The notes under the pieces are model-generated. The model searched no databases, had not been told where the DNA came from, and saw only the letters and a program-made list of their open reading frames with translations. From an uncultured Ectothiorhodospiraceae bacterium (GTDB lineage: Bacteria; Pseudomonadota; Gammaproteobacteria; Nevskiales; Oceanococcaceae), in NCBI GenBank assembly GCA_937141935.1, contig CAKZQS010000043.1, forward strand, positions 25,152 to 89,151: a stretch of 64,000 nucleotides of DNA, in the 5' to 3' direction. This document shows, piece after piece, positions 9,089 to 59,519 of the stretch; position 1 is the first letter of the stretch; each line of letters starts with the position of its first letter. The translations under genes and the position numbers were made by a program.

Positions 9089-9090
9089 AC

Positions 9091-10799: not shown

Positions 10800-10830
10800 G
10801 CCACCGCCGCGCCGCGACTGAGTTCCCCGG

Positions 10831-21200: not shown

Positions 21201-21282
21201 CCGCGCGGGGTCGCCGCCATTAGGAAGCGCGTGCGCCGGCAACGCCGGTGGCTGGCCACGATGAGAATCGCGCGCACGCCGC

Positions 21283-24572: not shown

Positions 24573-24605
24573 GCTCAGCCCCCGCCGCGACCCGAGGATC
24601 GGGCC

Positions 24606-28127: not shown

Positions 28128-28140
28128 GCGGTTCGCGAGC

Positions 28141-28812: not shown

Positions 28813-28821
28813 CGCGCGCGA

Positions 28822-31544: not shown

Positions 31545-31596
31545 TGTCGAAATTCTTGGGTCAGCGCGGCGGCCGCAGGGCCCGGCCGCGCGGCAC

Positions 31597-37450: not shown

Positions 37451-38548
37451 ATGAAAATTCTGGTGACCGGGGGCGCGGGGTTCATCGGCTCCGCCGTGGT
37501 GCGGGAGGTGTTGGCCAACAGCGCGCATGATATTTGCAATGTCGATGCGCTGACATATGCGGCCTGCCCGGAGGCCTGCGCGGCCGCGGCACAGGCTGCG
37601 GGCCCGCGTTATCGCTTTGTCGAGGCCGACATCTGCGATGCCGCCGCCATGGCGCGCGTCTTTGCCGAGTTCGCGCCGGATGCGGTGATGCACCTGGCCG
37701 CCGAATCCCATGTGGATCGCTCGATCGACGGCCCGGCCGACTTCGTGCGCACCAATGTGCTGGGCACCTTTACGCTGCTGCAGGCGGCGCTGACACATTA
37801 CGAGGGCCTGTCCGGTGCGGCGCGCGAGCGCTTTCGCTTCCACCACGTCAGCACCGACGAGGTCTACGGCAGCCTCGGTCCCACCGGGCTGTTCCGCGAA
37901 GACACCCCTTACGCGCCCAACTCGCCCTATTCGGCCTCGAAGGCGGGTTCGGACCACCTGGTGCGCGCCTGGCACCACACCTACGGGCTGCCGGTGCTGC
38001 TGAGCAACTGCTCCAACAACTACGGGCCCTGGCAGTTCCCGGAGAAGCTGATTCCGGTGGTGATCCTGAAGGCGCTGGCCGGCGAGCCGATCCCGGTCTA
38101 TGGCCAGGGGCTCAACGTGCGCGACTGGCTCTATGTCGAGGACCACGCGCGGGCGCTGCTGCGCGTGCTGGAGGCCGGTGCGCCCGGCGCCGCCTACAAC
38201 ATCGGCGGGCATAACGAATGGACCAACATCGATGTCGTGCGCACGATCTGCGCCCTGCTCGATGAGCTCGCGCCCGGCGCCGCGCCCTACGCGGAGCAGA
38301 TCCAATTTGTGACCGACCGGCCCGGGCATGACGCCCGCTATGCCATCGACGCCGGCAAGATCGCCCGCGAACTGGATTGGACGCCGGCCGAGTCCTTCAC
38401 CAGCGGCCTGCGCAAGACCGTGCAGTGGTACCTGGAGCAGCGGGCGTGGTGCGCGCGCGTGCAGCAGCGTGGCCAGGCCACCGGCCGCCTCGGGCTGCGT
38501 GCGGCCCCGGCCTCGCCCGGCGCGCCGGCGCAGGAGGGCGCCGCATGA
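37451..38548 (+). CDS. rmlB: dTDP-glucose 4,6-dehydratase
   Basis: [17 protein letters not shown] (Rossmann fold), catalytic [13 protein letters not shown], 365 aa. Confidence 0.95.
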
Positions 38549-39420
38549 AGGGCATCATCCTCGCCGGCGGCTCCGGCACGCGGCTGTACCCGGCCACGCA
38601 GGCGGTCTCCAAGCAGCTGCTGCCGGTCTACGACAAGCCGATGATCTATTACCCGCTGACCACGCTGATGCTGGCGGGGATCCGCGAAATCCTGATCATC
38701 TCGACGCCGCAGGACACGCCGCGCTTCGAAGCCCTGCTGGGCGACGGCGCGCAGTGGGGGCTGCAACTCTCCTACTGCGTGCAGCCCTCGCCGGACGGGC
38801 TGGCCCAGGCCTTTTTGCTGGGCGAGCGCTTCATCGACGGCGAGCCCTGTGCGCTGATTCTGGGCGACAACATCTTCTTCGGCCACGACATGGTGCCCGG
38901 CCTGCGCCGCGCCGCCCGCCAGGAAGAGGGGGCCACGGTCTTCGCCTATGCGGTGACCGACCCCGAGCGCTATGGCGTGGTGCATTTCGACCGCGACGGC
39001 CGCGCGCTGGACATCGAGGAAAAGCCGGCCGAGCCCAAGTCCCGCTATGCGGTCACGGGGCTGTATTTCTATGACGCCGCCGTCGTCGAGCACGCCCGGG
39101 CGATTCGCCCCAGCCGCCGCGGCGAGCTGGAGATCACCGACCTGAACCGGCGCTATCTCGAGTCCGGCCGGCTGCGGGTGGAGCGCCTGGGCCGCGGCAC
39201 CGCCTGGCTGGACACCGGTACGCATGACTCCCTGCTCGACGCCGGCCTGTTCATCCACACGCTGGAAAAACGCCAGGGCCTGAAGATCGCCAGCCCCGAG
39301 GAGGTGGCCTTCCGCAGCGGCTTCATCTCGGCTACGCAGCTGCGCGACCTGGCCGCGCCGCTGGTCAAGAGCGGCTATGGCGACTACCTGCTGCGCATTG
39401 CCCAGGAGGAGGGCGCATGA
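38545..39420 (+). CDS. rmlA: Glucose-1-phosphate thymidylyltransferase
   Basis: ATG 38545 (ATGA overlap). [38 protein letters not shown]. Confidence 0.95.
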
Positions 39421-39974
39421 AGGTCGAAGCGACCAAACTGGAGGGCGTGCTGAAACTGCAGCCCACCGTGCATGGCGATGCGCGGGGCTGGTTCATGGAA
39501 GCCTTCAACGCCCGCCGCTTCGCCGAGGCCACCGGGCACGGTGCCCCGCTGGTGCAGGACAACCAGTCGCTGTCCGCGCGGGGCGTGCTGCGCGGCCTGC
39601 ATTATCAGGTCGGGCCCAATGCCCAGGCCAAGCTGGTCCGGGTTCTGGCCGGAGAAATCTTTGACGTGGCCGTCGACCTGCGTCGCGGTTCGCCGACCTT
39701 CGGCCGCTGGACCGGCGCCTGGCTGTCGGCGCAGAACCGCACCCAGCTCTGGGTGCCGGTGGGCTTCGCGCACGGCTTCATGGTGACCTCGGAGCAGGCC
39801 GAAGTCCTGTACAAGGTGTCCGCCCCCTACGACCGGGCCGCCGAGCGCGCCGTGCGCTGGGACGACCCGGGCATCGGCATTGAATGGCCCCTCAATGGCG
39901 CGCCCACGCTGTCGGACAAAGACGCGGTGGCGCCGCGGCTGGAACAGGCCGAGGTCTTCGAGGCCGCGGCATGA
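39417..39974 (+). CDS. rmlC: dTDP-4-dehydrorhamnose 3,5-epimerase
   Basis: 185 aa cupin. Motifs [28 protein letters not shown] overlaps at both ends. Confidence 0.95.
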
Positions 39975-40840
39975 AGCTGCTTCTAACCGGCGCCGGCGGG
40001 CAACTGGGCCAGGCGCTGCTGGCGGCCGTTCCCGCCGGCTGGGCCGTACAGGCGCTGCCGCGCGCGGAATGCGACATCGGCGACGCCGCGGCGGTGCAGG
40101 CGGCCATGGCCCGCCACGCGCCGCAGGCGGTGGTGAACGCCGCCGCCTACACCGCCGTCGACCGGGCCGAGTCCGAGCCCGAGGCGGCTTACCGCTGCAA
40201 CGCCGCGGGGCCGGCCCATCTCGCCCGCGCTTGCCGCGACGCCGGCGTGCGGCTGGTGCATATCAGTACGGATTTCGTCTTCGATGGCCGCCAGTCCACG
40301 CCCTATGCGCCGCAAGACCCGGTTGCACCGCTGGGCGTGTACGGGCAAAGCAAATGGGAGGGCGAGCAGGCGGTGCGGGCGCAGGCCGGTGACGCGGCCA
40401 CCATCCTGCGCACGGCCTGGGTCTATGGGCCCAGCGGCCACAATTTTGTGCGCACGATGCTGCGCCTGCTGGGCGAGCGCGAGGAGTTGGGCGTCGTCAG
40501 CGACCAGATCGGCAGCCCGACCAGCACCGCCAGCCTGGCGCAGGCGATCTACGCGCTGCTGGCCGGCGACGCCGGGCGCGGCGAAACCATGCACTGGACG
40601 GATGCCGGGGTGGCCAGCTGGTACGACTTCGCGCACGCCATCCGCGAGTACGCGCGCGAGGCCCGGCCCGCGCAGCGCTGGGCCGCGCTGCGGCCGATCC
40701 GCACGGCCGAGTACCCCACGCCGGCCCGGCGTCCGGCCTACAGCGTGCTCGACTGCACGCTGCCGGTGGCCGTGCCGCGAGCGCATTGGCGCGAAGCGCT
40801 GCACCCCGTCGTGGCGGCGCTGCTGCGCACCGGGCCATGA
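39971..40840 (+). CDS. rmlD: dTDP-4-dehydrorhamnose reductase
   Basis: ATG 39971. Motifs [36 protein letters not shown]. Confidence 0.9.
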   Translation: MKLLLTGAGGQLGQALLAAVPAGWAVQALPRAECDIGDAAAVQAAMARHAPQAVVNAAAYTAVDRAESEPEAAYRCNAAGPAHLARACRDAGVRLVHISTDFVFDGRQSTPYAPQDPVAPLGVYGQSKWEGEQAVRAQAGDAATILRTAWVYGPSGHNFVRTMLRLLGEREELGVVSDQIGSPTSTASLAQAIYALLAGDAGRGETMHWTDAGVASWYDFAHAIREYAREARPAQRWAALRPIRTAEYPTPARRPAYSVLDCTLPVAVPRAHWREALHPVVAALLRTGP

Positions 40841-42006
40841 GCCGCGCGGCGCTGCCCCGCCGCATCCTGCAGTTCTGGCATGCGGCCACAATCCCGGCGG
40901 ACGTGGCGGCGCTGATGCGCGGCTGGCGCCATGCCCACCCGGGCCATGCGCACCTGTGCCTGAACGATGCGGCCGCCAGGGCCTTTGTCCGGCGGGTGCA
41001 CGCACCGCGGGTGGCACAGGCGCTGCACGACTGCGCCCACCCGGTCCTGCGTGCGGACCTGATTCGCTACGCCTGGCTGGCCGTACACGGTGGGGTGTAC
41101 ATCGACGCCGATGAGCGTTGCATCGCGCCGCTAGGGCCCTTGCTGCAGCGCGTACGGCAGGCGCCGGGCGTCGAGCTGATGGCCGTGCGCAAGCACAACG
41201 GCTGCGTGTCCAACAGCCTGCTCGCGGCCCCGCCGGGCAGCCCCCTGCTCTGGGCGATCCTCGAGCGCACCGTCGACAACATCCTGCAGCGGCGCTCACC
41301 GAACATCTGGGAGGTCAGCGGCCCCGGTGTGGTGGATGCGCTGGTGCGGGCGGCGCCGCCGGAGCGGGTGCGCGTGGTCCCGCTGTCCCGCTGGCGCCGG
41401 CATGCGCGTGTCGAGCCGCAGCTGGCCTACAAGTCGCGGCCGCACTGGTCGCAGGCGCAGAAGCGGCGCTCGATTTTTCGCGTTGCACCGGCGGCCGCGC
41501 ATGCGGACAGCGTGCGTGGCCGGGTCATGGCGCTTCCGCGCCCCGCGCAGCCCGGCTTCCTGCTCGAGGGCGCGGCGCAATTTGCGGCGGTGAAGGCCGC
41601 ATTGCGGGCGGCGCGGGTGCCCCTGGTGGCCTGCCGGGAGGTGCGCGTTCTGAGTGACCCGCAGGCGCGTCTGGCGCGCTGGTGGCTGCCCCTGGCGCAG
41701 ACCGTGCGCCTGCGGCTCGATCCCGCCCCGCCACCACCGCTGGCCCGGAGCCTGCCCTGGGTGCGCGGCGCGGGCGGCTGCGACGAGGCGAGCCCGGCGC
41801 CGGCGGCCCAGCTGCGGGTCGACGTCGAAGCGGCGCCGGCGGGCGCGAATCTGGCGGTCAATGTGGAAGTGACGCCGCAGCTCTACCGCGGGCCGACGCT
41901 CCGCGGCCGCCTGCATACCCCGGCCGGCGCGGTGGCGTGGACCTGCCGGCCACGGCGCACGCCGGCGGAGTCCGCGGTGGGAGCCGCCCGGCGGCGGCGG
42001 CGCTGA
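40837..42006 (+). CDS. Glycosyltransferase family 32-like (Gly_transf_sug / OCH1-type DXD) with unknown C-terminal extension
   Basis: ATG 40837 (ATGA overlap). Motifs ILQFWH and RADLIRYAWLAVHGGVYIDADE. The C-terminal ~170 aa have no recognisable motif. Confidence 0.65.
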   Translation: MSRAALPRRILQFWHAATIPADVAALMRGWRHAHPGHAHLCLNDAAARAFVRRVHAPRVAQALHDCAHPVLRADLIRYAWLAVHGGVYIDADERCIAPLGPLLQRVRQAPGVELMAVRKHNGCVSNSLLAAPPGSPLLWAILERTVDNILQRRSPNIWEVSGPGVVDALVRAAPPERVRVVPLSRWRRHARVEPQLAYKSRPHWSQAQKRRSIFRVAPAAAHADSVRGRVMALPRPAQPGFLLEGAAQFAAVKAALRAARVPLVACREVRVLSDPQARLARWWLPLAQTVRLRLDPAPPPPLARSLPWVRGAGGCDEASPAPAAQLRVDVEAAPAGANLAVNVEVTPQLYRGPTLRGRLHTPAGAVAWTCRPRRTPAESAVGAARRRRR

Positions 42007-42023: not shown

Positions 42024-42067
42024 GCTCAGGCCTTGCTCAGGCCTTGCTCAGGCCTCGCTCAGGGCCG
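42024..42067. repeat. Four tandem copies of an 11-bp unit (GCTCAGGCCTT) at a convergent gene junction
   Basis: gctcaggcctt gctcaggcctt gctcaggcctc gctcagggccg. The third unit contains the stop codon (42048..42050) of the 1934-aa gene. Confidence 0.85.
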
Positions 42068-45000
42068 GCTCGTGGATGCGCTGGGCCGAGGGCAGGGCTT
42101 GCAGCCAGTGCCGGGCGCGTTGCGCCTGCCGGGTCAGCAGGAAATACATCTCCGCACAGCCGGTCGCGGGGTCCGTGCCGACCGCATTGAGGATATGCAT
42201 CTCCGGCAGCGCCTCGCGGAGCAGCGCGTAGACATCCCGGCCGTAATGCCGGTAGTGGCCGTGGCGGCTCTCGTCGGCATAGCCCCAATCCACCGTGGTT
42301 TCGCGGCGTAAGGGGTCGGGGAAAGACAGAAAGACCAGGCCCTCGGCGGCGGTGATGCGACCGAGTTCCTGCAAGGCGCTGCGGTCGTCCGGAACGTGCT
42401 CAAGCACGTGGTTGCAGATCACCAGCTGATAGGCGCCGTCGGCGCGGTCGATCTGCATCAGGTCCAGCGAGTTGTCGCCGCCGTACTGTGACACCTCCAG
42501 CCCCGCGAACCACTCTCGCGGCACCGCCGGGTCGGCGGAAAACTGCAGCGCCGGATTGCGGCCCGCCAGTTCGGCCTCACCAATGTCCAAGAAGGCCTGG
42601 CGGAAGGCGCGGTGGCGCTCCAGCGACTGGCAGCGCGTGCAGCGCGGCCAGGCCTCGCCGCCGACCGCGCGGCGCCCGCCCGGCCCGGGACCGAACTCGC
42701 GGTGGCCACAGATGTTGCAGGCCGACGCCGCCGTTGCCGTGTCTGCGGCGGCGTCCGGCTGCGGTGTGCCCGGATTCGATGCGGCGTTCTCGCCCGCTTC
42801 CGCCCCCCGGGGCGCGGACCCGGCGCCGGCGACCGGCTCCGGGGCGGCGGCGGGCCGCAGCAGGTGCGGGGGCAGGCCCAGCACCCGCGAGGGCGCGCCG
42901 CGCAACTGCGCCTCGGCCCGCACATCGGCCGCGGCTCCGTCCGCAACCAGCGCAAACATGCGTTCGCCCAGCACCGCCCGCGCGCGGGCGCCCAGTCCCC
43001 GCGGGTCCAGGCGCAGCCCGCGGTGATGCAGCGCCGAGGTGGCCAGCTGCCGGTACACGGCCCGGTCGAAGGGCCGGCTGCCGCAGTCCGGGCAGTCGAA
43101 GCTGATGCGATCGGCGGCGCGGGCGATCTCGCCCGTCCAGCCGCAGAGGTTGCAGCGGGCTGCGTTGTCACCCTGGCAGTGGGCGAGCAGGGGCAGCGTC
43201 TCCTCGAACACCGGGTGCGCGGCCAGCGTGCCCTCGTCCACAAAGCTGTCGAGGCCCGGCCGGGTCTTGTTGGACAAAGCCGCCAGGCCCGGCAGCTCAC
43301 CCAGGCGCAGGCTCTGGCTCTCCAGGTAGTAGCTGTACTCGACGTCCATCAGCGCCTGCGGGCGCTGCGGGCTGAAGCCGCCGTGCTCCTCGTAAACGCT
43401 GCGGCGCAGCACGAACAGACCGCCCTGCACATGCCGGAACTCGCGCTCCGGGTGGGCGCGGGCGAAGTCCTGCGCGCGAAAATCCGCAAACCAGCTCTGC
43501 TCGCTGTAGGCGCGGCCATCCGGCCAGGCCGGTGAGGCGACCAGTTGCCCGCCGAGCGCGATGTCCGGCTCGCGGCGCATGTGGTGCAGCAGCTTGCGCT
43601 CCCAGCCCGCGTGCAGGATCAGGCCCTCGTTGCTGCACACATAAATGATGAACTCCGAGCGCGCGCGCTCCAGCGCCAGGTTCGAGGCCGGCCCGCAGTA
43701 GCGGTTCTCCGGCAGGGCCAGGAGGCGGATGCGGTCATCAGCGGCGATGTGCGCTTCCAGCCGCTCCAGGAAGTCGGCATCGCTGGCGTTATCGACAATG
43801 GTCAGCCGGAAGGGCGTTTGCGTATGCGCACGGACGCTGTCGATCGCACGCTCGGTGGCCTCCCAGTTCCCATAGCCCTCGCGGTGGAAGGTCACCATGA
43901 AGATGTCGAGCGGCGGCGCCAGCGCGAGGTCGAGCAAGGTGTCGACCGGCCGGGCGCTGCCGAACTCGCGCTGGCACCAGGCCTGTCCCTGGGCGCTGAT
44001 CGCCTGCCGCTGCGCCGCCGGCAACTGGAGCACGTCGCGCAGGCCCGCGGCGAGCGCCGCCGGCTCCGCCGCGCTGACAAAGGCCTGGATGCCGTCGCTC
44101 AGGTAGTCGGGGATGGCGGAGACCGCGGTCGTCAGCACCGGTACGCCGGCCGCCATGGCTTCAAGCAGCACCGTCGGCAGGCCGTCGCGATCCCCGTTTT
44201 CGGCTTCGATACAGGGCAGGCAGAAGACATCGGCCTGCGCCAGCAGCGCCTGCAACTCGGCCGCGCCCTCGTAGCCACCGCTGAAATGCACGCGCTCGGC
44301 CACGCCGAGTTCGTGGCTGCGCGCACGCAGCTTCGCCTCCAGCGGCCCGTAACCGGCGATCTGCAGTTCGGCGGCCTCGGCGGGCAACTGGGCCAAGGCC
44401 TCCAGCAACAGCTGCACGCCCTTCTTCTCCACCAGCCGCGTCGCGCAGAGGATGCGCCGGGGGCCGTCGCCATCCTTGCGCGCCGCCGTGGGGGGCGTGG
44501 GCGCGAGGGACACCGCTTGCGGCGTGTAGATGCAACGCTCCGCCGGCACGCCCTGGGACTGCAGGAAGTCGCGATGGTGCGGGCCGTGGACCAGGATGCC
44601 GGCGCAATAGGGGCTGGCGGCGATCTCGGCGATGCGGTTCCGCTGCCGGTTGGCGTGATGGAAGATGTCGACCGCGTGCGGCATCAGGCTGAAGGGCAGC
44701 CCGCAGGCCTCGGCCGCCGGCCACAGCAGCAACGTGCCGCCGGGGTAGGCGAAGTGCCCGTGCACCCAGGTGCGCTCGTCGGCCCGCAGCCGCGCGGCCA
44801 GGTCCTCGGCGTCGGCAACGCGGGTGGCCACGACGGCCGGCAGGTCCTGCGCGGCCCGGTCCGGGGGCTGGCTGTAATACACCCGCACGTCGATGCCGCG
44901 CCGCAGCAGCTCGCGCAGCTCCTCCATCACGAAGGTTTGCGACAGCGCGGGCCAATCCCAGATGACATAGGCCAGGCGCAGCGCCGCGGGGTCCTCAACG

Positions 45001-47852
45001 CTGATCCGGGCAAACTTGCGGCGCACCGCGGCCTCGTTGCGGCCCAGGTCTTCGGTCAGCGTGATGTTTTCCAGCGCCGGCGCGATGCGGTAATCGGCGA
45101 GCAGCAGCGGCAGGTAGCGCGGCTCGTAGAGGCGCGTGTAGCGCAGGATCAGGTCCCAGTCGACCAGCCGGCGCAGCCCGGTGTCGAAGCCGCCCAGCTG
45201 GGCATGCACGCGACGCCGGTGGCTGAAGATGTTCAGGTCGATGTAGTTCTGCGCGCGCAGGTCCTGCCAGTCGAAGTCGCGGCCGCGCTCGAAGCGCCGC
45301 CCGCGCGCCTGGTCATCGACCCGCAGCGCCGCATAACAGGTCTGCAGCAGCGGGTCTTCGATGTAGGCGGCGGCGACATGCAGCAGGTAGTCGGGGTGCC
45401 AGCGGTTGTCGGAGTCCAGGTAGGCGATGCAATCGCCTGTGGCGGCCTCCAGCCCGCTGTTGCGGGCGGCGCTGACGCCGGCATGTGGCAGCGCCAGCAG
45501 GCGCAGCTGCCCGCTCTGGACTAGCTCGGGGTAGCGCGCGCGGACCCGCGCCAGCGTGTCGTCTTCGCTGCCGTCATCGCAAAGCAGCAGCTCCCAGTGC
45601 GGGTAGCTCTGCGCCTGGACCGAGGCGATGGCCTCCAGCACCGGTTCCGCGCGGTTCCAGGTGGGCATCACCACCGAGAAGCGCGGCGCGGAGGCCCCGC
45701 TCACCGCGGCCAGCGCGGCCTGGCGCTCCGCCGCGCTGGGCACTTGTGGAGGTGCCGAATCAACCCGTGGCCGGCGCGGCGGCCTGCGGCCGGCTGCGCT
45801 GGCCAATGCCGGCGGGCCCGCCTCCGCGCCCAATGGCGGGCGGCGATCCGCCGGCCGGCTAAGCCAATGCCGCAGCGCGGCGGTGGGCTCCGTGGGCAGC
45901 TCCGGCTGCCGCTGCGCGTAGGCGCGGGCGTCGAAGTGCGGGTGCGGCGCCAGCCCGGCCGCGGCGCCCTGCGTCAGCCAATGGGCGAAGGCGTCGGCCT
46001 GGGGGTCCAGCCCCGGGCAGCGCTCCCGATACCAGCCCGCATCGAAGCCCGGGTTGGGCGCGCGACCCTCCGCCGCGCCGTGGCAGAGGTAATGCCACAG
46101 CGGGTCCAGGCCGCCGGCCTCGACGTCCGGGTAGCGCTGCAGGTACCAGGCCGCATCGAACCACGGGCTCGGCGCCTTCGCGGCCAGCGGTGCGACGCGC
46201 CGGTAGTCCGCCAGGGCCTGCGCGGGAGCCAGCTCGTCGCTGCCGGCGAGGTAGAACTCGGGCTCGAAATAGGGATTCGGTCTCCGACCCTCCGCCGCGC
46301 CGTAGGCGCAGTAGTGGGCCCAGGCGCCGAGCCCTGCCGCGGCGACATCGGGGTGCGCGTGGAGGTACCAGGCGGGCTGAAAATAGGGGCTGGGCTGCCG
46401 GCCCTCGGCCTCGCCATGCTCCAGGTAGTGCCACAGCGGCTGCACCCCGGCCTGGGCGACGTCGGGGTAGGCCCGCAGGTACCAGTCCAGCGCGAAGCCC
46501 GGATGCGGCGCCTGGCCTTGGCGCCAGCCCTGCGCCAGCCAGTGCAGGGCCAACGCCAGCGGGCGACCCCGCAGCTTGTATTCGGTCGCGTACCAAGAGG
46601 CATCAAACAGGCGCTCGCGCAGCAGCCTGCGCGCCTGGCGCAGATGCGCCGCATGGCGGCCCAGCCGCACCGGGCGTGCGCCGTTGACATTCGGGATCGT
46701 AGCGGCGCGCAGCTGCCGCGCCGCCTGCGCCCGCGCGAGCCGCAGCTGCGTCTCGCGACGCTGCAGCTGCGCCGCCACCTGCGCGTGCTCCTGGCGGCTC
46801 TGCGCATGCGCGGCCTGCTCCGCGTCGAGCTGCGTCTGCAACTGGCGCTCGCGCGCCTGCAGCGCCTGGACCTGGGCGCGGTCCCGCGCCAGATCCTGTT
46901 CCAGGGCCTGCTGCCGCGCGTGCGCCTGCTGCGCCTCGCTGCGCGCCTGCGTGCGCTCCGCGTCCGCCTGCGCCCGGCGCTCGTCGAGCAGCGGTACCCA
47001 CAGCTCGGCGGCTCGGGCCACCTCGCCGGCGATGCGCTCCAGGGCGGCCTGGGCGTCGGCCGCCGCGGCCGGATCCTCGGCGGCGCACAGCCGCGCCAGC
47101 GCCGTGTCCGTGTCCTGCACCCAGCCGCGGGTCAGCGCCTGCCGGGTGAGGCTCTCCGCTTCCGTCTGGTGATGGCGCTCGTCGGCGCGCAGGAAGGCCT
47201 CGATGTCCGCCGCAGCCACTTCCGCCGTGCGCGGCCACTGCAGCCCTGTTCGGCTGCCGATGCGCGCGACGGCCGACTGCCAGTCGTCCAGCAGGGCGGT
47301 ATAGGGGAGCAAGACGCGCGGCAGCTCGCGGCTGTCGTGTTCGGCGTCCAGCACATAGCGCAACCACAGCAGCAGCGACTGCGCCGCGCTGAAGCCGTCG
47401 CGCGCCTGCAGCGAGGCGGCGACCTCCAGCGGGTTGCGGGTGATCAGCACGCCGCGCAGGTCGATGTCCAGCGTGGCGAAAATCGGCTGCCAGAAGGGCA
47501 GCAGGCGGCTGAGCCGGGGCTCCTTGAGCACGCCCAGCGGCGCCTCGCCGAAATCCGCCTGCAGCTGCTCGCGCGCCCGGGCGCCGAGCTCGCCCTCGGC
47601 CAGCTCCCGGAGGGCCGTCGGATCGAGCGGGCGCCAGTCATCCCAGCGGCTGCCCATCGCCTGCAGAACGGCATCGTTGAGCCGGTACAGGCTCTGCGGC
47701 TCCCAGAAGCCCAGCGCGTTGTTGCCTTCGACCGGGGGCATCAATTGCGCGGGGAGCTGCGCGCCGAGCAGGTTCAGCACCCGGGTCAGGGCCGAGGTGC
47801 CGCTGCGGTGCATGCCGAGGACCAGCAGAAGAGTCTGTCGCGTCTGCGCCAT
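42048..47852 (-). CDS. Giant multidomain glycan-assembly enzyme: sulfotransferase, coiled coil, 7 tandem repeats, GT2, GT4, GT2, Zn-ribbons, SAM methyltransferase
   Basis: 1934 aa. aa 1-230: sulfotransferase (GMHRSGTSAL, TRNPLEVAAS). aa ~285-385: Q/A/R-rich heptad-like coiled coil. aa 417-672: ~37-aa repeats (WYLxxYPDVxxAGxxPLxHYLxHGAAEGRxPNPxF). aa ~724-950: GT2 (FSVVMPTWNRAEPVLEAIASVQAQSY, LLCDDGSEDD, YLDSDN). aa ~958-1305: GT4 (GDRDGLPTVLLEAMAAGVPVL). aa ~1314-1545: GT2-like (IFMVTFHRE, TIVDNASD). CxxC...CxxC at aa 1567-1590 and 1712-1741. C-terminal MTase motif LVICNHVLEHVPDD. Confidence 0.85.
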   Translation of the reverse strand: MAQTRQTLLLVLGMHRSGTSALTRVLNLLGAQLPAQLMPPVEGNNALGFWEPQSLYRLNDAVLQAMGSRWDDWRPLDPTALRELAEGELGARAREQLQADFGEAPLGVLKEPRLSRLLPFWQPIFATLDIDLRGVLITRNPLEVAASLQARDGFSAAQSLLLWLRYVLDAEHDSRELPRVLLPYTALLDDWQSAVARIGSRTGLQWPRTAEVAAADIEAFLRADERHHQTEAESLTRQALTRGWVQDTDTALARLCAAEDPAAAADAQAALERIAGEVARAAELWVPLLDERRAQADAERTQARSEAQQAHARQQALEQDLARDRAQVQALQARERQLQTQLDAEQAAHAQSRQEHAQVAAQLQRRETQLRLARAQAARQLRAATIPNVNGARPVRLGRHAAHLRQARRLLRERLFDASWYATEYKLRGRPLALALHWLAQGWRQGQAPHPGFALDWYLRAYPDVAQAGVQPLWHYLEHGEAEGRQPSPYFQPAWYLHAHPDVAAAGLGAWAHYCAYGAAEGRRPNPYFEPEFYLAGSDELAPAQALADYRRVAPLAAKAPSPWFDAAWYLQRYPDVEAGGLDPLWHYLCHGAAEGRAPNPGFDAGWYRERCPGLDPQADAFAHWLTQGAAAGLAPHPHFDARAYAQRQPELPTEPTAALRHWLSRPADRRPPLGAEAGPPALASAAGRRPPRRPRVDSAPPQVPSAAERQAALAAVSGASAPRFSVVMPTWNRAEPVLEAIASVQAQSYPHWELLLCDDGSEDDTLARVRARYPELVQSGQLRLLALPHAGVSAARNSGLEAATGDCIAYLDSDNRWHPDYLLHVAAAYIEDPLLQTCYAALRVDDQARGRRFERGRDFDWQDLRAQNYIDLNIFSHRRRVHAQLGGFDTGLRRLVDWDLILRYTRLYEPRYLPLLLADYRIAPALENITLTEDLGRNEAAVRRKFARISVEDPAALRLAYVIWDWPALSQTFVMEELRELLRRGIDVRVYYSQPPDRAAQDLPAVVATRVADAEDLAARLRADERTWVHGHFAYPGGTLLLWPAAEACGLPFSLMPHAVDIFHHANRQRNRIAEIAASPYCAGILVHGPHHRDFLQSQGVPAERCIYTPQAVSLAPTPPTAARKDGDGPRRILCATRLVEKKGVQLLLEALAQLPAEAAELQIAGYGPLEAKLRARSHELGVAERVHFSGGYEGAAELQALLAQADVFCLPCIEAENGDRDGLPTVLLEAMAAGVPVLTTAVSAIPDYLSDGIQAFVSAAEPAALAAGLRDVLQLPAAQRQAISAQGQAWCQREFGSARPVDTLLDLALAPPLDIFMVTFHREGYGNWEATERAIDSVRAHTQTPFRLTIVDNASDADFLERLEAHIAADDRIRLLALPENRYCGPASNLALERARSEFIIYVCSNEGLILHAGWERKLLHHMRREPDIALGGQLVASPAWPDGRAYSEQSWFADFRAQDFARAHPEREFRHVQGGLFVLRRSVYEEHGGFSPQRPQALMDVEYSYYLESQSLRLGELPGLAALSNKTRPGLDSFVDEGTLAAHPVFEETLPLLAHCQGDNAARCNLCGWTGEIARAADRISFDCPDCGSRPFDRAVYRQLATSALHHRGLRLDPRGLGARARAVLGERMFALVADGAAADVRAEAQLRGAPSRVLGLPPHLLRPAAAPEPVAGAGSAPRGAEAGENAASNPGTPQPDAAADTATAASACNICGHREFGPGPGGRRAVGGEAWPRCTRCQSLERHRAFRQAFLDIGEAELAGRNPALQFSADPAVPREWFAGLEVSQYGGDNSLDLMQIDRADGAYQLVICNHVLEHVPDDRSALQELGRITAAEGLVFLSFPDPLRRETTVDWGYADESRHGHYRHYGRDVYALLREALPEMHILNAVGTDPATGCAEMYFLLTRQAQRARHWLQALPSAQRIHEPALSEA
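45837..46604 (-). repeat. Seven tandem ~37-aa coding repeats inside the giant enzyme
   Basis: Aligned by eye: DWYLRAYPDVAQAGVQPLWHYLEHGEAEGRQPSPYF / AWYLHAHPDVAAAGLGAWAHYCAYGAAEGRRPNPYF / AWYLQRYPDVEAGGLDPLWHYLCHGAAEGRAPNPGF, plus four more degenerate copies. Confidence 0.75.
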
Positions 47853-47853
47853 C

Positions 47854-48768
47854 TCAGCCTCCCGCGGGCAACGCCATCAGGCGTCGCGCGGCGGCAGGCA
47901 GGCGGCCCAGGTAAACGGGGTCGCGCCACATCACCCGGTGCTCCTCACCGCGCAGTTCCCGGTACTCGTCGCGAAAGTCCTGCATCGGCCGCTCCTCGGC
48001 CGGGACGTTGGTCGAGACCCCGCCATGGAACTGGTGGAAGGTGGCCTCGCCGAGCAGCATCACGGGTGTGAGTTCGGGGTGCATGACCAGGCGGTTGTGG
48101 ATGTCGAGGTTGACGAAGCCGCCGCCGATGGTGCGAAAGCCGGGGTCGAAGCCGCCCAGCGCGTCGAGCAGGCCGCGCGGGGCGGCGAAGCAGTTGCTTT
48201 CGGCCAGGCTGCCCAGGAAACCATCCCGCGAGGAGCCGGCCAGGCTGCTGATGGCAAAGAGTTTGTAACCGTCCTCGCGCCAGCCGCTGCGCTTGAGCAG
48301 CCCGTCCTCGACCTCCTGGCAGTAGCCCTCGAGCATCGACAGGTTCTGGCGCTTGGGGCCGAGGTGCATGCCCAGCGTCATCACGTAGGCGGGCGCGAAG
48401 GCGGACAGCGCCTTCAGCAGGTAATGCAGCATCCCCGGCGAGGGAATGCGCGCGCCGTCGATCACGCAGGCCACGTGCTCGCCACGCGCGGCCGCGATGC
48501 CGGCATTCATGGCCGCGACGGGCGTCGGGTCCGCAGAGGGCACGAACTGGTAGCGAAACCCGGGCTGCAGCGCCTCGATGGCGGCCCCATCGAGCGGCTC
48601 GCGCGAGTTGCTGTCCATCGCCAGAACTTCATAGTCCTGCGCGCTGACGCCTTGCTGGAAGGCGGTGCTGAAGGCCCACAGCGTGCGCCGCGCTTCGCGG
48701 CGCATGTTGTGAAAGACCACGACGACCGACAGCTTCGGTCGCGGCGCGCGTTTAAGACCCCAGGGCAT
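47854..48768 (-). CDS. GT-A fold glycosyltransferase-like protein (GT2-like)
   Basis: ATG 48768 (MPWGLKRAPRPKLSVVVVFHNMRREARRTL). The stop lies 1 nt before the giant gene start. Confidence 0.6.
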   Translation of the reverse strand: MPWGLKRAPRPKLSVVVVFHNMRREARRTLWAFSTAFQQGVSAQDYEVLAMDSNSREPLDGAAIEALQPGFRYQFVPSADPTPVAAMNAGIAAARGEHVACVIDGARIPSPGMLHYLLKALSAFAPAYVMTLGMHLGPKRQNLSMLEGYCQEVEDGLLKRSGWREDGYKLFAISSLAGSSRDGFLGSLAESNCFAAPRGLLDALGGFDPGFRTIGGGFVNLDIHNRLVMHPELTPVMLLGEATFHQFHGGVSTNVPAEERPMQDFRDEYRELRGEEHRVMWRDPVYLGRLPAAARRLMALPAGG

Positions 48769-49492
48769 GCCCGTGCTCCTCCAGTGCCGCGAAAACGCGC
48801 ATGCTGGCTGCGTCGACGGCGATCGGTTCGGCATCGTCGTGGTTGCGCAGCTCCGGTTGAAAGAAGTCCGCGGCCGCGGGTTCCAGGCCCAGGTGTTGCA
48901 GCAAGCCGACCAGATCCGCGCGGTAGGCCTCGGGTGCCTGATCAAAGCGGATCAGCGGCACCGCATATCGCCGCGCGAGCGTGAGCAGGCGCTGGTTGTA
49001 CTCGCGCCACAGCGCCAGTCCGCGCGCGTGACTGAAGCGGTTGCGGTGCGCGAGCGAGCGGGCCACCGCCGCCGGGTGCCGGTAGGTGCCGGCGAATTTC
49101 CAGGCGGGAACGGCCTCCTGCCAGAAGGGCAGGGTGAACACGGTGCGTGGGTCCTTGAAGCCCCAGGGGCCCTGCGCGGGCACCAATTCCTCCAGCACGG
49201 CCGCGCGCTCGGCGCGCAGCGCCGGGCCCCAGTGCAGCGCCAGCGCGGGGTTATCCCAGCGGCCGCCATTGGCCGCCAGCACGGCGTCATTGAGGGCCAT
49301 GACGCGCGGGTGCTCGCGGTTGCCGCGGCGGTTGAAGGGGTTGGCGGTATGCACATCACCCAGGTGCAGGCCCGCCTGTTGCAGGCTGCCGGCAAGACAA
49401 CTGGTGCCGCTGCGATGCATGCCCAAAACGCAGATGCAGCTCACGTTATTAATAAGGCGTCCCTGGACCCGAATTAGCTGGCGCAAATGCAA
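48752..49492 (-). CDS. Sulfotransferase (paralog of the N-terminal domain of the giant enzyme)
   Basis: Motifs GMHRSGTSCL, ALNDAVLAANGGRWDNP (compare LNDAVLQAMGSRWDDW in the giant protein), YRHPAAVARS. The start is uncertain: TTG 49492 or GTG 49444. Confidence 0.75.
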   Translation of the reverse strand: MHLRQLIRVQGRLINNVSCICVLGMHRSGTSCLAGSLQQAGLHLGDVHTANPFNRRGNREHPRVMALNDAVLAANGGRWDNPALALHWGPALRAERAAVLEELVPAQGPWGFKDPRTVFTLPFWQEAVPAWKFAGTYRHPAAVARSLAHRNRFSHARGLALWREYNQRLLTLARRYAVPLIRFDQAPEAYRADLVGLLQHLGLEPAAADFFQPELRNHDDAEPIAVDAASMRVFAALEEHGHALGS

Positions 49493-51750: not shown

Positions 51751-51792
51751 GGTCTGACTCCACCCCCTCCTCGCGAGGGCGGTTAAAATACG

Positions 51793-51828
51793 GCGCCGGC
51801 GGTGATACACCGCCGGCGCTTTTTTTTT
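51793..51828 (+). terminator. Strong intrinsic terminator
   Basis: GCGCCGGCGG-tgataca-CCGCCGGCGC forms a 10-bp GC stem, followed by T9. Confidence 0.9.
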
Positions 51829-51850
51829 GGGGTTGAGGAACCACGACCGC

Positions 51851-52909: not shown

Positions 52910-52912
52910 GGC

Positions 52913-53395
52913 ATGAAGAAGCTGGCTTTTGTTCTGGGCCTGGTGGCCGTCGCCTTCGGGGCCTGGTATGTCTTTGGGCCCGGGGCCATTGCGCCGCAGC
53001 CGGGCGCCGAAAGCACGGGCGTCGACCTCGCCGCGTTGCGGGCCCCGGAGGGCGCGACCGATGAGGAGGCCCTGGAGTTTCGTGCGCGCAAGCGCTGGGA
53101 TGCGATGATCGAGCTCGATCTCGACACGACCTACGAGTTCGCCACGCCGACCTATCGCGCCAACTACAACCTGGCCCACTACCGTCGCCAGTACGCCGCG
53201 CAGGTGAAGCGGACTGGCTTCGAGGTCTACAGCGTCGATATCGACGAGACCGACCCGCGCAAGGCCAAGGTTGTGATCCTGTTGAACTACGAGACGGCGG
53301 GCTATGAGCCCGAACAGGTGCTGAAGCTGCAAAGCCGGCTCGTCAACACCTGGGTCAAGCGCAACGGAGAGTGGTGGTTCGTCGAGCCGCGCTAG
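52913..53395 (+). CDS. Small membrane-anchored protein of unknown function (NTF2-like C-terminal signature)
   Basis: 160 aa. N-terminal anchor MKKLAFVLGLVAVAFGAWYVF. Ends in NTWVKRNGEWWFVEP. Confidence 0.55.
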   Translation: MKKLAFVLGLVAVAFGAWYVFGPGAIAPQPGAESTGVDLAALRAPEGATDEEALEFRARKRWDAMIELDLDTTYEFATPTYRANYNLAHYRRQYAAQVKRTGFEVYSVDIDETDPRKAKVVILLNYETAGYEPEQVLKLQSRLVNTWVKRNGEWWFVEPR

Positions 53396-53416: not shown

Positions 53417-54154
53417 GTGCTGAGCTTCGTCTGCATCGGCGCCCAGAAGGCCGGCACCTCCTGGGTGCACGCCCAGCTGGCGCGCTCCCCGGAGATCGGC
53501 TTTCCCCGCGGCAAGGAAGTGCACTATTGGGATTGGGTTCAGCGTGGCAAGCGCCCGCTGAACCTGATCCGTTATGTGGAGCCTTTCGCGCGGGATGCGG
53601 ACAGTCCTCGCCTGCTGGGCGACATGACGCCGGCCTATGCCACCGTCCGCCCCGAGTACGTGCACCTGCACGCGCAAATGTATCCCGAGGCGCCGCTGTT
53701 CATGCTGCTCCGGGACCCTGTCGAGCGGGCCTGGTCGGCGGCGCGCATGGATTGGGCCGCCGAACACCCGCAGGCGTCGATGTCTCCCGATCCGGCCTGG
53801 TTGGCGGCCTACCTGCGAGACCCGGAGGTTTTGGCCAAGGGCGACTACGCCCGCAGCCTGCGCACCTGGGGCGCCTACTTTCCCGCCGGCCGGCTGCGCG
53901 CCTTCATGTATGCGGACATCGCCCGCCGCCCGCGGCCGCTGCTGCGGGATATCTGCGCGCATATCGGTGCCGATGATGCCTTTGTCGATGACATCACCGA
54001 TGCGGCGCTGATGGAACGCGTGCGCCCCGGTCCCCGTTCCGCGCCCTGTCCGCCAGCAATGGCAGCCGAACTGCGCGCCTGGTACCTGCCGCGCATGCGT
54101 GCGCTGGAAGACCTGCTCGGCCAGGCCCTGCCGGACTGGCAGGCTGCCACGTGA
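53417..54154 (+). CDS. Sulfotransferase
   Basis: GTG start. 5'-PSB GAQKAGTSWV and 3'-PB LRDPVERAWS. Confidence 0.8.
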   Translation: MLSFVCIGAQKAGTSWVHAQLARSPEIGFPRGKEVHYWDWVQRGKRPLNLIRYVEPFARDADSPRLLGDMTPAYATVRPEYVHLHAQMYPEAPLFMLLRDPVERAWSAARMDWAAEHPQASMSPDPAWLAAYLRDPEVLAKGDYARSLRTWGAYFPAGRLRAFMYADIARRPRPLLRDICAHIGADDAFVDDITDAALMERVRPGPRSAPCPPAMAAELRAWYLPRMRALEDLLGQALPDWQAAT

Positions 54155-56876: not shown

Positions 56877-57728
56877 TTGCCTGGTCGAGTGGAAACGGTG
56901 CCCGAAGCGGAGTCTGCGGCGCAGCCCCTGATCCCCGCACTGCCGCCGCGGGTCCAGGGTCGGAGCCACCTGCGGGTCTTCCTGACGGCCTTGCATGCCT
57001 TTCTGCTGCGCGAGCTCAAGCAGCAGTTCGGCCGCTCGCGGCTGGGCTATTTCTGGGCGGTGGCCGAGCCGGCCGCCACGGTGGCCGTACTGACGCTGAT
57101 CCACGCCGGCATCCGCGGCGGCGAGGCCCAGATCTACGGGGCACACCCGATCGTCTTCTTCGTATTCGGGGCGGTGCCTTTCTTCACCTATTTCCACTGC
57201 GTGAATCGCTGCCAAAACGTCTGCGGCAGCCACAAGGGGCTGTTCAACTACCGGCAGATCAAGCCGGTGGACATCATGCTGGCGCGGGCGATCATTGAGG
57301 CCCTGTCGATGCTCACCGTGGGCGTGCTGTTCGTGATCGGGTGGTTGTGGCTGGGCCACGATTTCAGCCTGCCCGACCCGCTGGTGCTGCTGGCGGCGAT
57401 GCTGGCGCTCTTTGCGCTGGGTCTGGCCGTGGGTCTGATATTCGAGGTGTTCGGCACGGTCTACCCGGATCTGCGCCGCGTCTTCACGATTGCGATGCGG
57501 CCGATGATTTTCATCTCGGGGCTGTTCTTCACCATCGAGATGATCCCGCCCCAGCACCGCCACCTGTTGACCTGGAACCCGGTGCTGCACGCGGTCGACT
57601 TCGCGCGCGAGGGCGTGCTGGCGGGCTATGACTCGCCGGCCAGCGGCAGCTACCTGCTGCTGTGCATTCTCGGCCTGCTGCTGGTCGCCTTCTCGGCCTA
57701 CCGCCGCTTCATGTACCGGCTGATCTGA
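56877..57728 (+). CDS. kpsM: ABC-2 type polysaccharide export permease (KpsM/Wzm type)
   Basis: Polytopic. N-terminal LRELKQQFGRSRLGYFWAVAEP is typical of ABC-2 capsule permeases. The start is uncertain (TTG 56877 or GTG 56889). Confidence 0.8.
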   Translation: MPGRVETVPEAESAAQPLIPALPPRVQGRSHLRVFLTALHAFLLRELKQQFGRSRLGYFWAVAEPAATVAVLTLIHAGIRGGEAQIYGAHPIVFFVFGAVPFFTYFHCVNRCQNVCGSHKGLFNYRQIKPVDIMLARAIIEALSMLTVGVLFVIGWLWLGHDFSLPDPLVLLAAMLALFALGLAVGLIFEVFGTVYPDLRRVFTIAMRPMIFISGLFFTIEMIPPQHRHLLTWNPVLHAVDFAREGVLAGYDSPASGSYLLLCILGLLLVAFSAYRRFMYRLI

Positions 57729-57733
57729 GCGCG

Positions 57734-58408
57734 ATGATCCGCCTGACCCGCGTCACCAAGACCTATCCGTTGCTCGGCATGGCCCGGCACACGGTGTTCC
57801 GCAACCTGTCGCTGGAGCTGCCCTCGCGGACCCATATCGGCATCCTGGGCCGCAACGGGGCGGGAAAGTCCACGCTGCTGCGCCTGATCGGGGGCGCCGA
57901 GCTGCCGGATCGCGGGCGGGTGGAATCCGATGGCAGCATCTCGCCGCCGCTGGGGCTGGCGAACGGCTTCGCCGTCAAGATCTCCGGGCGCGACAATGCG
58001 CGTTTCGTGGCGCGGATCTGCGGCGACGACGACGACGCGGCGCAGGAGCGAATTCGTTTCGTGCGCGAGTTTTCCGAGCTGGGCGTATTCTTCGACCGGC
58101 CGGTCGAGACCTACTCCTCCGGCATGCGCGCCCGCCTGGCCTTCTCGATCAGCATGTCCTTCGACTACGACTACTACCTGATCGATGAACTGACGGCCGT
58201 TGGCGACAAGCGCTTCCGCGACAAGGCCGAGCGCACCTTCAAGGAAATGAAGGGGCGGGCCAGCATCATCATGGCCAGTCACAATCTCGCGCAGCTGCGC
58301 CGCGACTGCGAGATCGGCGTTTATTTGAAGGGGAATGCGGTGCATTACTACGACGACATCGGGGCGGCTGTGGCCGCCTATGAGCACGACCAGCGGCAGG
58401 CCGCATGA
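57734..58408 (+). CDS. kpsT: Polysaccharide export ABC transporter ATP-binding protein (KpsT type, no C-terminal glycan-binding domain)
   Basis: ATG 57734. Walker A GRNGAGKST, signature YSSGMRARL, Walker B YYLIDE. 224 aa. Confidence 0.9.
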   Translation: MIRLTRVTKTYPLLGMARHTVFRNLSLELPSRTHIGILGRNGAGKSTLLRLIGGAELPDRGRVESDGSISPPLGLANGFAVKISGRDNARFVARICGDDDDAAQERIRFVREFSELGVFFDRPVETYSSGMRARLAFSISMSFDYDYYLIDELTAVGDKRFRDKAERTFKEMKGRASIIMASHNLAQLRRDCEIGVYLKGNAVHYYDDIGAAVAAYEHDQRQAA

Positions 58409-59517: not shown

Positions 59518-59519
59518 GC

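Follow-up and report, generated by a model that had tools for sequence, protein, structure and literature searches.

The window analysed here is a stretch of 64,000 nucleotides in which one gene on the minus strand (42048..47852) runs from an ATG start over 1934 amino acids to the stop codon. In its product a PAPS-type sulfotransferase (ST) fold is followed by a heptad-periodic helix of 105 residues and by seven repeats of 37 aa; then come a GT2 and a GT4 glycosyltransferase (GT) module and another GT2-like one, and finally a zinc ribbon, a linker and, at the C-terminus, another zinc ribbon together with a methyltransferase-like domain. The ATG comes directly after the gene of a stand-alone GT2 (47854..48768, minus strand), which lies immediately upstream in the same operon, and a stand-alone 222-aa sulfotransferase is encoded at 48752..49420 (minus strand). 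Convergent with the big gene are, on the plus strand, rmlB, rmlA, rmlC and rmlD for dTDP-L-rhamnose synthesis (37451..40840) and the gene of a Gly_transf_sug (GT32-like) glycosyltransferase (40837..42006). A second stand-alone sulfotransferase (Sulfotransfer_3/1) is encoded at 53417..54154 (plus strand). The KpsMTED exporter that the earlier note had seen nearby was confirmed at 56.9-61.2 kb, where a KpsM-like permease, a 224-aa KpsT-like ATPase, a KpsE-family protein and a KpsD/Poly_export protein are encoded (56898..61229, plus strand). KpsS and KpsC (Capsule_synth) were not found in any ORF scanned. A polyprenyl-phosphate sugar-phosphate transferase of the WecA/MraY type (PF00953; 1472..2551, plus strand) is a possible initiating enzyme, and a homolog of this type directly adjoins the ortholog P0002.

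A reading frame of this length could be an artefact of assembly or annotation that fuses separate genes, and the last module is indeed a separate gene in Phycisphaerales, with a 4-nt overlap, so that fission at this point occurs naturally. Against an artefact, GC3 was 0.82-0.97 in every 80-codon window, in the same frame throughout, and this uniformity indicates no hidden frameshift. The identical 1934-aa protein was present on several independent contigs from three sources (ENA, Logan and NCBI), and all six strain variants (98.7-99.3% identity) kept the 1934-aa frame. A search for orthologs with the same domain order returned full-length proteins (P0002, P0003 and P0004; 46-50% identity) that have the whole order in common; the orthologs with this order measure 1938-2179 aa. 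The artefact explanation is thus effectively refuted: the gene encodes one real, continuous polypeptide, as the earlier note had assumed.

The sulfotransferase proposed at the N-terminus gave a Pfam score below threshold (Sulfotransfer_3, full profile covered, 24.8 bits against a cut-off of 27 bits), and a profile search of this region against PDB sequences yielded no significant match. Its AlphaFold model (aa 7-257; 47082..47834, minus strand) nevertheless has a pLDDT above 90, and in a Foldseek comparison with the PDB the PAPS sulfotransferases lead (TPST1/2, the CurM ST, Stf9 and SULTs), the top ones with probability 1.00. A 5'-PSB loop, GMHRSGTS (aa 13-20; nt 47793..47816), and a 3'-PB motif, R139..S147 (nt 47412..47438), were recognized; the loop residues H15-S20, R139/S147, E51, K110 and R113 are invariant across sets of 40 and 31 homologs. 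All of these invariant residues are also present in the 222-aa sulfotransferase of the locus, a paralog of the head with 29% identity to it. Judged by predicted fold and conserved motifs, the head is a sulfotransferase, and it belongs to a family of about 17,900 clusters. It shares the predicted fold and both PAPS-binding motifs with TPST1/2, the CurM/OLS ST domains and mycobacterial Stf9, but sequence similarity to these enzymes is very low and none of them occurs as a fusion with a coiled coil and a glycan polymerase.

The head is followed by a single predicted helix of 105 residues (aa 261-365; 46758..47072, minus strand), which is rich in A, Q, R, L and E and has no Gly and one Pro. Its hydrophobic residues recur with a period of 3.5 residues (z = 4.1-6.3 relative to shuffled sequences, about -0.5 in control domains), and the same heptad periodicity was found in the corresponding spacers of 103 homologs (median z = 8). 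Together with the AlphaFold model this points to a coiled-coil stalk, which would be about 15 nm long if straight (0.15 nm per residue). The coiled coil claimed in the earlier note is therefore supported, with its position shifted about 20 residues toward the N-terminus from aa 285-385. Spacers in the family are 90 to 680 aa long, those of the four closest orthologs 147 to 389 aa. A low-confidence linker (aa 366-396) and a short helix (aa 397-412) lead from the stalk into the repeats (46605..46757, minus strand).

The seven tandem repeats of 36-39 aa (aa 417-677; 45822..46604, minus strand) follow roughly the consensus FDxxWYLxxYPDVAxAGxxPLxHYLxxGxxEGRxPxPx. Each of the seven predicted units was recovered by a repeat HMM (E = 1e-14 to 1e-21), which was built from these same units. 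The domain is predicted with confidence to consist of helices only; it matched no Pfam or NCBIfam family and no PDB fold. In some proteins that have neither head nor coiled coil the repeats directly precede GT domains; other carriers of the repeats are small hypothetical proteins and proteins with protease- or adhesin-type domains. These contexts do not support the suggestion that the repeats form part of a chain-length ruler, a role we consider less likely; the domain would most likely hold the nascent glycan or serve as a dock between the GT block and partner proteins.

A disordered linker rich in Pro, Ala and Arg (aa 678-719; 45696..45821, minus strand) separates the repeats from the GT block, in which the three expected modules were all identified. 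GT2 module 1 (aa 720-955; 44988..45695, minus strand; profile match at aa 726-853, 98.8 bits) has a conserved DSD at aa 813-815, and is followed by the GT4 (GT-B) module (aa 956-1312; 43917..44987, minus strand; match at aa ~972-1290, 110.8 bits). GT2-like module 2 (aa 1313-1560; 43173..43916, minus strand; match at aa ~1318-1490, 53.6 bits) carries a conserved C-S-N-E-G (aa 1406-1410) at the usual DXD position. Of the two predicted CxxC...CxxC motifs, both of which were located, the first lies in zinc-ribbon module 1 (aa 1560-1665; 42858..43175, minus strand; Cys 1567, 1570, 1587 and 1590); it is invariant in the orthologs, and the module is kept at the end of the GT core in about 38 relatives. 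A poorly conserved, low-complexity Ala/Pro/Gly linker (aa 1666-1711; 42720..42857, minus strand) connects it to the C-terminal part.

Similar layouts are known from established terminator/polymerase systems. [quoted passage not shown] Like the 1934-aa protein, WbbB is one polypeptide with a chain-modifying enzyme at the N-terminus, polymerising GTs at the C-terminus and a coiled coil between them. It, too, acts in an ABC-transporter-dependent pathway, and its product contains rhamnose, which is likely here too given the adjacent rml genes. It differs in its head, a GT99 beta-Kdo transferase, in lacking the 37-aa repeat domain, the zinc ribbons and the methyltransferase-like tail, and in a Wzt that carries a CBM. 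ORF6 resembles our protein in having head, coiled coil and GT2 modules, there rhamnose-adding, on one chain, in its dependence on further GTs from separate proteins and in an extra non-catalytic, possibly glycan-binding domain; relative to the coiled coil, however, this CBM is placed toward the head and the repeats of our protein toward the GTs. The ORF6 cap is methyl-phosphate, and the exporter there is of the Wzm/Wzt-CBM O-antigen type. The WbdD/WbdA pair resembles the proposed arrangement in its coiled-coil ruler between terminating enzyme and membrane-proximal polymerase, but there the two are separate proteins and the WbdD heads are a kinase and a methyltransferase.

By analogy with these systems, we estimate a probability of about one half that the 1934-aa protein is a single-chain polymerase/terminator for a rhamnose-containing glycan in an ABC-transporter-dependent pathway; it resembles the known bacterial design of polymerase, chain terminator and molecular ruler in what seems to be a new form that uses sulfate. 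On the cytoplasmic side of the inner membrane, the GT2-GT4-GT2 block would extend a lipid-linked chain, while the helix would oligomerise into a coiled coil and keep the sulfotransferase about 15 nm away. When the non-reducing end reached the head, sulfate would be transferred from PAPS onto it, and the terminal sulfate would block further extension and so set chain length, much as the methyl, phosphomethyl or beta-Kdo caps in the WbdD and WbbB systems do. The finished chain would leave through KpsMTED. As no sequence similarity of the protein to WbbB or WbdD was detected, the case for a terminator rests on analogy, and the searchable literature yielded no mention of sulfate capping a bacterial chain. 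The stalk of the 1934-aa protein is among the shortest in the family, an observation that speaks against a terminator.

Comparison with relatives showed that the architecture is not rare: the cassette of ST head, coiled coil and repeats was present in 111 of the 120 best matches, fused to varying sets of glycosyltransferases. Homologs from the firmicute Tepidibacter and four from archaea (Methanobacteriaceae) have a Methyltransf_24 domain and a coiled coil in the ST position and keep the same repeat-GT2-GT4-GT2 core, and a Paracoccus homolog has neither head nor coiled coil. Head and coiled coil are gained or lost together, and the N-terminal head position is swappable. Linkage of the big gene to an ABC transporter and to rml genes is seen again across phyla, in the case of rml in many of the related loci. 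In five related loci (L005, L007, L012, L013 and L016) the gene order is wzm, wzt, big gene, and the Wzt, the ATPase of the transporter, carries a Wzt_C domain (76-88 bits against a cut-off of 30.4), a CBM that reads glycan caps.

It is possible, though we think rather doubtful, that the head is instead a scaffolded decorating enzyme which, with the stand-alone sulfotransferases, sulfates internal residues of a rhamnose-containing, capsule-like polysaccharide; the GT block would polymerise, the coiled coil would only oligomerise the protein and organise a multi-enzyme complex, and chain length would not be set by a cap. The two further sulfotransferases of the locus, one of them the paralog of the head, and the extra stand-alone ones common in related loci, where there are often several, mean that the head could be one more such enzyme. 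Pyruvyl transferases and methyltransferases are also encoded in related loci, as is a sulfatase in one of them; such enzymes would be expected where sulfated polymers are heavily decorated. The exporter, too, is of the capsule type (KpsE, KpsD), and its 224-aa ATPase has no CBM, so that the window lacks one of the two features that mark capped systems. Known capsule systems are described as having no terminator, coiled-coil or otherwise (PMC11231755); the locus shares KpsM, KpsT, KpsE and KpsD homologs with those of group 2 but differs from them in its coiled-coil architecture and in having a candidate WecA-like initiator instead of KpsS/KpsC, which the ORFs scanned did not contain. What internal decoration does not readily explain is that the head, with few exceptions, stands strictly at the N-terminus with a heptad-periodic spacer behind it (111 of 120 relatives), that the two come and go as a pair, that a methyltransferase occupies the head position in other lineages, as in proven terminators, and that five related loci encode a cap-reading Wzt_C. 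The polymerase/terminator with a ruler put forward in the earlier note therefore stands in part: the WbbB/ORF6-like layout, the swappable head and the Wzt_C loci favour it, but the CBM-less KpsMTED, the extra sulfotransferases, the doubtful methyl cap and the role assigned to the repeats do not.

A possible methyl cap had been attributed to the C-terminal module, which consists of zinc ribbon 2 (Cys 1712, 1715, 1738 and 1741; CxSLERHR) and a class-I methyltransferase-like domain (aa ~1746-1910; together 42051..42719, minus strand). The assignment holds only partially, as matches to the profiles are confined to their distal half (aa 1797-1868; Methyltransf_23, 41 bits) and the motif I position reads LQFSADPA, which is not glycine-rich, so that a canonical SAM motif I is lacking. 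That this module is the real terminator, adding a methyl cap as in E. coli O8 while the ST head modifies, for example, the primer or adaptor region, seems improbable. Methyl caps are established chemistry (PMC11231755), and many relatives, among them those with a Wzt CBM, have a related methyltransferase-like gene next to the big gene or fused to it; but in our protein the module sits at the GT end and not at the distal end across the coiled coil from the GTs, it is separable, as in Phycisphaerales, and it is absent from P0008. If active, it would more likely modify internal residues than cap the chain. The Wzt-CBM loci encode a methyltransferase as well, which could be the true capping enzyme there.

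The protein of 1934 aa is encoded on the minus strand by one ORF with an ATG start (42048..47852; all domains described below are on this strand). Because the GC content of the window is approximately 70%, long spurious ORFs are common in it. In the frame of the big gene, third-position GC was between 0.82 and 0.97 in all 80-codon windows from start to stop, and this was the sole frame with a coding signature across the span. Several contigs (up to 145 kb long) from assemblies in NCBI, ENA and Logan encode the identical 1934-aa protein, and all six natural variants (98.7-99.3% identity) have 1934 residues. Over their full length the orthologs P0002 (1978 aa), P0003 (1938 aa) and P0004 (2179 aa) share 46-50% identity with the query, and their domain order is the same. 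Taking into account the frame statistics, the independent assemblies, the strain variants and the orthologs, an assembly artefact, a gene fusion or a hidden frameshift can be excluded for practical purposes. The uninterrupted ORF described in an earlier sequence-only note was thus borne out, and orthologs of identical domain order, which that note had named as a check, were found.

In ABC-transporter-dependent pathways a coiled-coil ruler has the terminating enzyme at its distal end, and the polymerising glycosyltransferases (GTs) are at, or recruited to, the opposite end (PMC11231755). All parts are on a single chain in WbbB of Klebsiella O12 and ORF6 of Klebsiella O7, and a methyltransferase followed by a coiled coil is a proven terminator format; the cap-reading carbohydrate-binding module (CBM) of the Wzt ATPase admits capped chains only, and the terminator is absent from capsule systems (PMC11231755). 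The query resembles the WbbB/ORF6 type in its order of predicted sulfotransferase head, helix (aa 261-365) and GT2-GT4-GT2 block (aa 720-1560), and also in being encoded with an ABC-2 exporter (KpsM and KpsT; wzm and wzt are adjacent in related loci). It differs from this type in that the transporter ATPase of the window has no CBM, whereas five related loci have the module (Wzt_C). No sequence homology to WbbB or to the E. coli O9a terminator WbdD was found among the PDB sequence matches of the query, a comparison that covers these two proteins.

By predicted fold and motifs, the head (aa 7-257) qualifies as a PAPS-type sulfotransferase. The Pfam profile Sulfotransfer_3 aligned with it over the whole profile length, with scores of 24.8 bits for the isolated domain and 19.0 bits in the whole protein, both below the curated cut-off of 27 bits. 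A sequence-profile search of the head against the PDB gave nothing significant (coiled-coil noise and 14-bit SULT matches), and since the profile link to solved sulfotransferases is not significant, the assignment depends on the predicted fold and the motifs. The AlphaFold model of aa 1-720, made with 40 homologs, had a mean pLDDT of 86.7, exceeding 90 in the head domain. When the head was compared with the PDB by Foldseek, PAPS sulfotransferases led the matches, the best at a probability of 1.00, and the structural neighbours were TPST1/2, the CurM and OLS ST domains, Stf9 and cytosolic SULTs. The head has the motif GMHRSGTS at aa 13-20 and, further on, R139-x7-S147. Residues H15-R16-S17-G18-T19-S20, E51, K110, R113, R139 and S147 were invariant in 40 multidomain homologs and, with the exception of T19, also unchanged in 31 mostly short homologs. 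We take the PSB loop, the 3'-phosphate-binding R...S pair and the catalytic positions to be equivalent to those of the solved enzymes. In an exhaustive search with the head alone as query, counted in representative clusters, the family comprised 17,885 clusters at E <= 1e-3 and 5,061 at E <= 1e-30, and in almost all of the best 150 matches the domain was at or near the N-terminus.

The stalk that follows (aa 261-365) was modelled by AlphaFold as one unbroken helix of 105 residues. Ala, Gln, Arg, Leu and Glu are abundant in this helix, and it contains no glycine and a single proline. Its L/I/V/M/F residues recur with a periodicity of 3.5 residues (z = 4.1-6.3 relative to shuffled sequences; z of approximately -0.5 in two globular control domains), and among 103 homolog spacers the heptad z value was above 3 in 88%, with a median of 8. 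This heptad-periodic helix agrees with the coiled coil proposed in the earlier note, the coordinates of which, corresponding to aa 285-385, had been placed approximately 20 residues too far toward the C-terminus. Between the stalk and the repeats there is a linker (aa 366-396) modelled with low confidence. Close orthologs, in which the neighbouring domains are conserved, have spacers of 147, 205, 242 and 389 aa, the longest being that of P0004. This variation in length is what would be expected of a tunable ruler, and it would also be compatible with an unconstrained linker.

Seven repeats of 36-39 aa each were delimited at aa 417-677 (45822-46604) with a repeat HMM made from the same seven units, each of which matched it with E values between 1e-14 and 1e-21. 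Modelled alone, the repeat domain consists of short helices (pLDDT 90.3, pTM 0.82). No Pfam or NCBIfam family was found for the repeats even at E <= 1, and Foldseek comparison of the model with the PDB yielded no structural neighbour (best E = 6). Modelled with confidence yet lacking any known relative, the domain merits study for its own sake. The repeats stand directly N-terminal to GT domains in some proteins that have neither head nor stalk, and they occur also in hundreds of hypothetical proteins of 270-460 aa and beside domains of the matrixin/serralysin protease, cadherin-like, CARDB and heptosyltransferase types, mostly in Alphaproteobacteria (observed among proteins P0271-P0390). Because GT, hypothetical and protease- or adhesin-type proteins contain them without any coiled coil, the suggestion that coiled coil and repeats together form the ruler found no support as regards the repeats; their distribution suggests a general module for binding glycan or docking partner proteins rather than a dedicated spacer.

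The GT block consists of a GT2 module with a conserved DSD (aa 720-955, 98.8 bits), a GT4 module (aa 956-1312, 110.8 bits) and a second, GT2-like module (aa 1313-1560, 53.6 bits). At the usual GT-A DXD site the last of these has Y-V-C-S-N-E-G (aa 1404-1410; window 43629-43643, minus strand), which is invariant in close orthologs and is represented by the pattern YxCxxEG in the consensus of 40 homologs. This suggests that the active site of the module is unusual and possibly metal-independent. Two four-cysteine zinc ribbons follow (C1567, C1570, C1587, C1590, and C1712, C1715, C1738, C1741, the second with CxSLERHR), separated by a low-complexity linker. The C-terminal domain matched class-I methyltransferase profiles in their distal half only (aa 1797-1868, profile positions 71-145 of 164); the glycine-rich SAM motif I is absent from it, the site reading LQFSADPA, and the best PDB sequence match was UbiG, over 39 residues with E = 0.09. 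In Phycisphaerales the tail is encoded by a gene of its own, with a 4-nt overlap with the big gene (locus L005, 6711-8219; L007, 14860-16389; L020); there zinc ribbon 2 and the methyltransferase-like module are fused to a second, canonical methyltransferase domain, an arrangement that amounts to a natural fission/fusion of the tail of the window protein. The tail is missing from the relative P0008 and is distantly related to stand-alone genes elsewhere. It had been proposed that two capping activities flank the GTs; the tail, however, is on the GT side of the stalk, is separable, is absent from P0008 and has no canonical SAM-binding loop, and is more readily regarded as an accessory module, optional and of uncertain activity.

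To judge by the best 120 full-length matches to the query, the architecture, which the earlier note did not recognise, belongs to a large, unannotated family, in agreement with the number of head clusters. An N-terminal cassette of head, spacer and repeats was common to 111 of the 120. In these proteins the head lies in roughly the first 150 residues, the spacer is poor in proline and glycine and measures 90-680 aa (147 in the query against a median of 277), and the repeat is present in 1-20 copies. The catalytic sets found C-terminal to the cassette differ and include GT2, GT4, RgpF, WbsX-like domains and methyltransferases; the GT2-GT4-GT2-ribbon core was found in ~38 of the best 120, and the fused methyltransferase-like tail in the four closest only. 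The place of the sulfotransferase is taken by Methyltransf_24, with coiled-coil-like sequence after it, in homologs from Tepidibacter formicigenes and from four Methanobacteriaceae MAGs. These proteins keep the repeat-GT2-GT4-GT2 core, and the part of the query homologous to them begins inside the stalk or shortly behind it (residues ~270-380). In a Paracoccus homolog both the head and the coiled coil are missing. The gene order wzm, wzt, big gene was found in five related loci (L005, L007, L012, L013 and L016) with Wzt_C CBMs scoring 76-88 bits; these are from two Phycisphaerales MAGs, which have full-length orthologs of 46-49% identity, two Pseudomonadales MAGs and one unclassified MAG. The Wzt-CBM loci also encode a methyltransferase, so sulfate is not the sole candidate cap there.

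The head swap, the cap-reading transporters of related loci and the variable stalk tie the query to the terminator paradigm. We consider it about an even chance (probability roughly 0.5) that the big gene encodes a single-chain polymerase/terminator with sulfate as the predicted cap, and the most likely reading of the design is that of a widespread variant of WbbB/ORF6. Stand-alone sulfotransferases are frequent in the window and the related loci, together with pyruvyl transferases, methyltransferases and even a sulfatase, and the polymers of these loci are probably sulfated along their length. The abundance of such modifying enzymes would also suit a scaffolded sulfotransferase, the head being one more decorating enzyme; this is the main alternative and appears less likely than the polymerase/terminator.

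The polymerase/terminator reading has to accommodate an exporter of the capsule type. As stated in the earlier note, a KpsMTED exporter is encoded near the big gene (KpsM and KpsT at 56.9-58.4 kb, with KpsE and KpsD also present). The window resembles the group 2 capsule (Kps) system in having KpsM, KpsT, KpsE and KpsD, and differs from it in that no KpsS/KpsC (Capsule_synth) beta-Kdo linker transferase was found in the ~50 window ORFs scanned, which are all but a few small or overlapping ones. The 224-aa ATPase of the window matched ABC_tran only, with no C-terminal CBM; one hallmark of capped systems is thus absent exactly at this locus. A KpsMTED exporter with a CBM-less ATPase was also found in the syntenic Oceanococcaceae and Sinimarinibacterium-type loci. 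A cultured relative, Sinimarinibacterium flocculans, encodes P0005. In some other related loci, among them L047 (1-260) and L048 (24713-25696), the C-terminal tail (~100 aa) of a 327-aa ABC ATPase weakly matched DUF29 instead of Wzt_C; this tail may read the substrate by a domain of another kind.

While the principle of the design is known, the sulfate chemistry is a prediction, and the pairing with a CBM-less capsule exporter differs from the prototypes. To our knowledge, the proven cytoplasmic systems of the 'ruler and cap' type use methyl, phosphomethyl or Kdo caps only. The searchable literature contained no report of sulfate as a cap in bacteria or of a terminator combining a sulfotransferase with a coiled coil. 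The 2019 terminator census of Mann, Kimber and Whitfield (Glycobiology), which is outside that scope, reportedly predicted new chemistries, and proteins that combine a sulfotransferase with a coiled coil may already be listed there. The sole parallel for a sulfate cap that we found is eukaryotic: in a study of LARGE1 matriglycan, the HNK-1 sulfotransferase reportedly caps the chain. Taken jointly, somewhat more tentatively than the polymerase/terminator reading itself, the observations might mean that glycan chains made by prokaryotic ABC-transporter-dependent synthesis are truly terminated by a sulfate cap; that this cap is added by a very large, unrecognised family of N-terminal sulfotransferase heads, carried on coiled-coil rulers and interchangeable with methyltransferase heads across bacteria and archaea; that the 37-aa repeat is a new fold binding glycan or docking enzymes; and that the Nevskiales-type terminator works with a CBM-less KpsMTED, with length control uncoupled from export gating. 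Surface polysaccharide chain length controls serum resistance, phage access and biofilm properties. A sulfate cap, if true, would add a new termination chemistry and give a function to thousands of unannotated proteins of marine and environmental bacteria and methanogens, and swappable heads would provide a modular toolkit for sulfated glycans of defined length.

The big gene is part of a glycan super-locus, in which rmlBADC and a GT32-like gene are oriented convergently to it. Upstream in the same operon are a GT2 gene and, two genes upstream, a stand-alone sulfotransferase of 222 aa (48752-49420, minus strand), a paralog of the head with 29% identity in which all invariant residues are retained. 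The divergent genes encode a conserved 650-aa protein without assigned function, a PPIase, a 160-aa protein, a second sulfotransferase, a 337-aa protein and a GT2, and continue with KpsM, the KpsT-like ATPase, a KpsE family protein (TIGR01010, 282 bits) and KpsD/Poly_export. The first three of them form a conserved trio (49798-53395, plus strand; also in loci L044 and L045) of a ~580-740 aa protein without family match, a PPIC-type PPIase and, in the window, the 160-aa protein; it recurs next to the big gene in Sinimarinibacterium- and Oceanococcus-type loci, and the N-termini resemble signal peptides. The nearest syntenic locus is that of an Oceanococcaceae MAG (RmlA 83% and penicillin amidase 75% identical). 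The penicillin-amidase family gene (33871-36393, minus strand) lies between two loci and is syntenic in the Oceanococcaceae MAG loci L004 and L008 (75-76% identity). This synteny suggests a Nevskiales-like gammaproteobacterium as the origin of the window.

The second of these loci in the window is a separate Wzy/PCP-type EPS locus (20010-32799, minus strand) with two Wzy_C proteins, GT4s, a Wzz/GNVR/tyrosine-kinase-like protein, a BBP2_2 porin and a sulfotransferase of its own (21283-22260). The same strand also has, at 14784-19691, a gene whose product of 1635 aa combines Calx-beta domains with a PPC and a subtilase (Peptidase_S8) domain. A WecA/MraY-type initiating transferase is encoded at 1472..2551 on the plus strand, and its counterpart directly adjoins the big gene in the P0002 locus. 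It is part of a third glycan block (1-13237, plus strand) that also contains a GT4-like gene, a GT8, several GT2s and an MBOAT O-acyltransferase (10831-12255).
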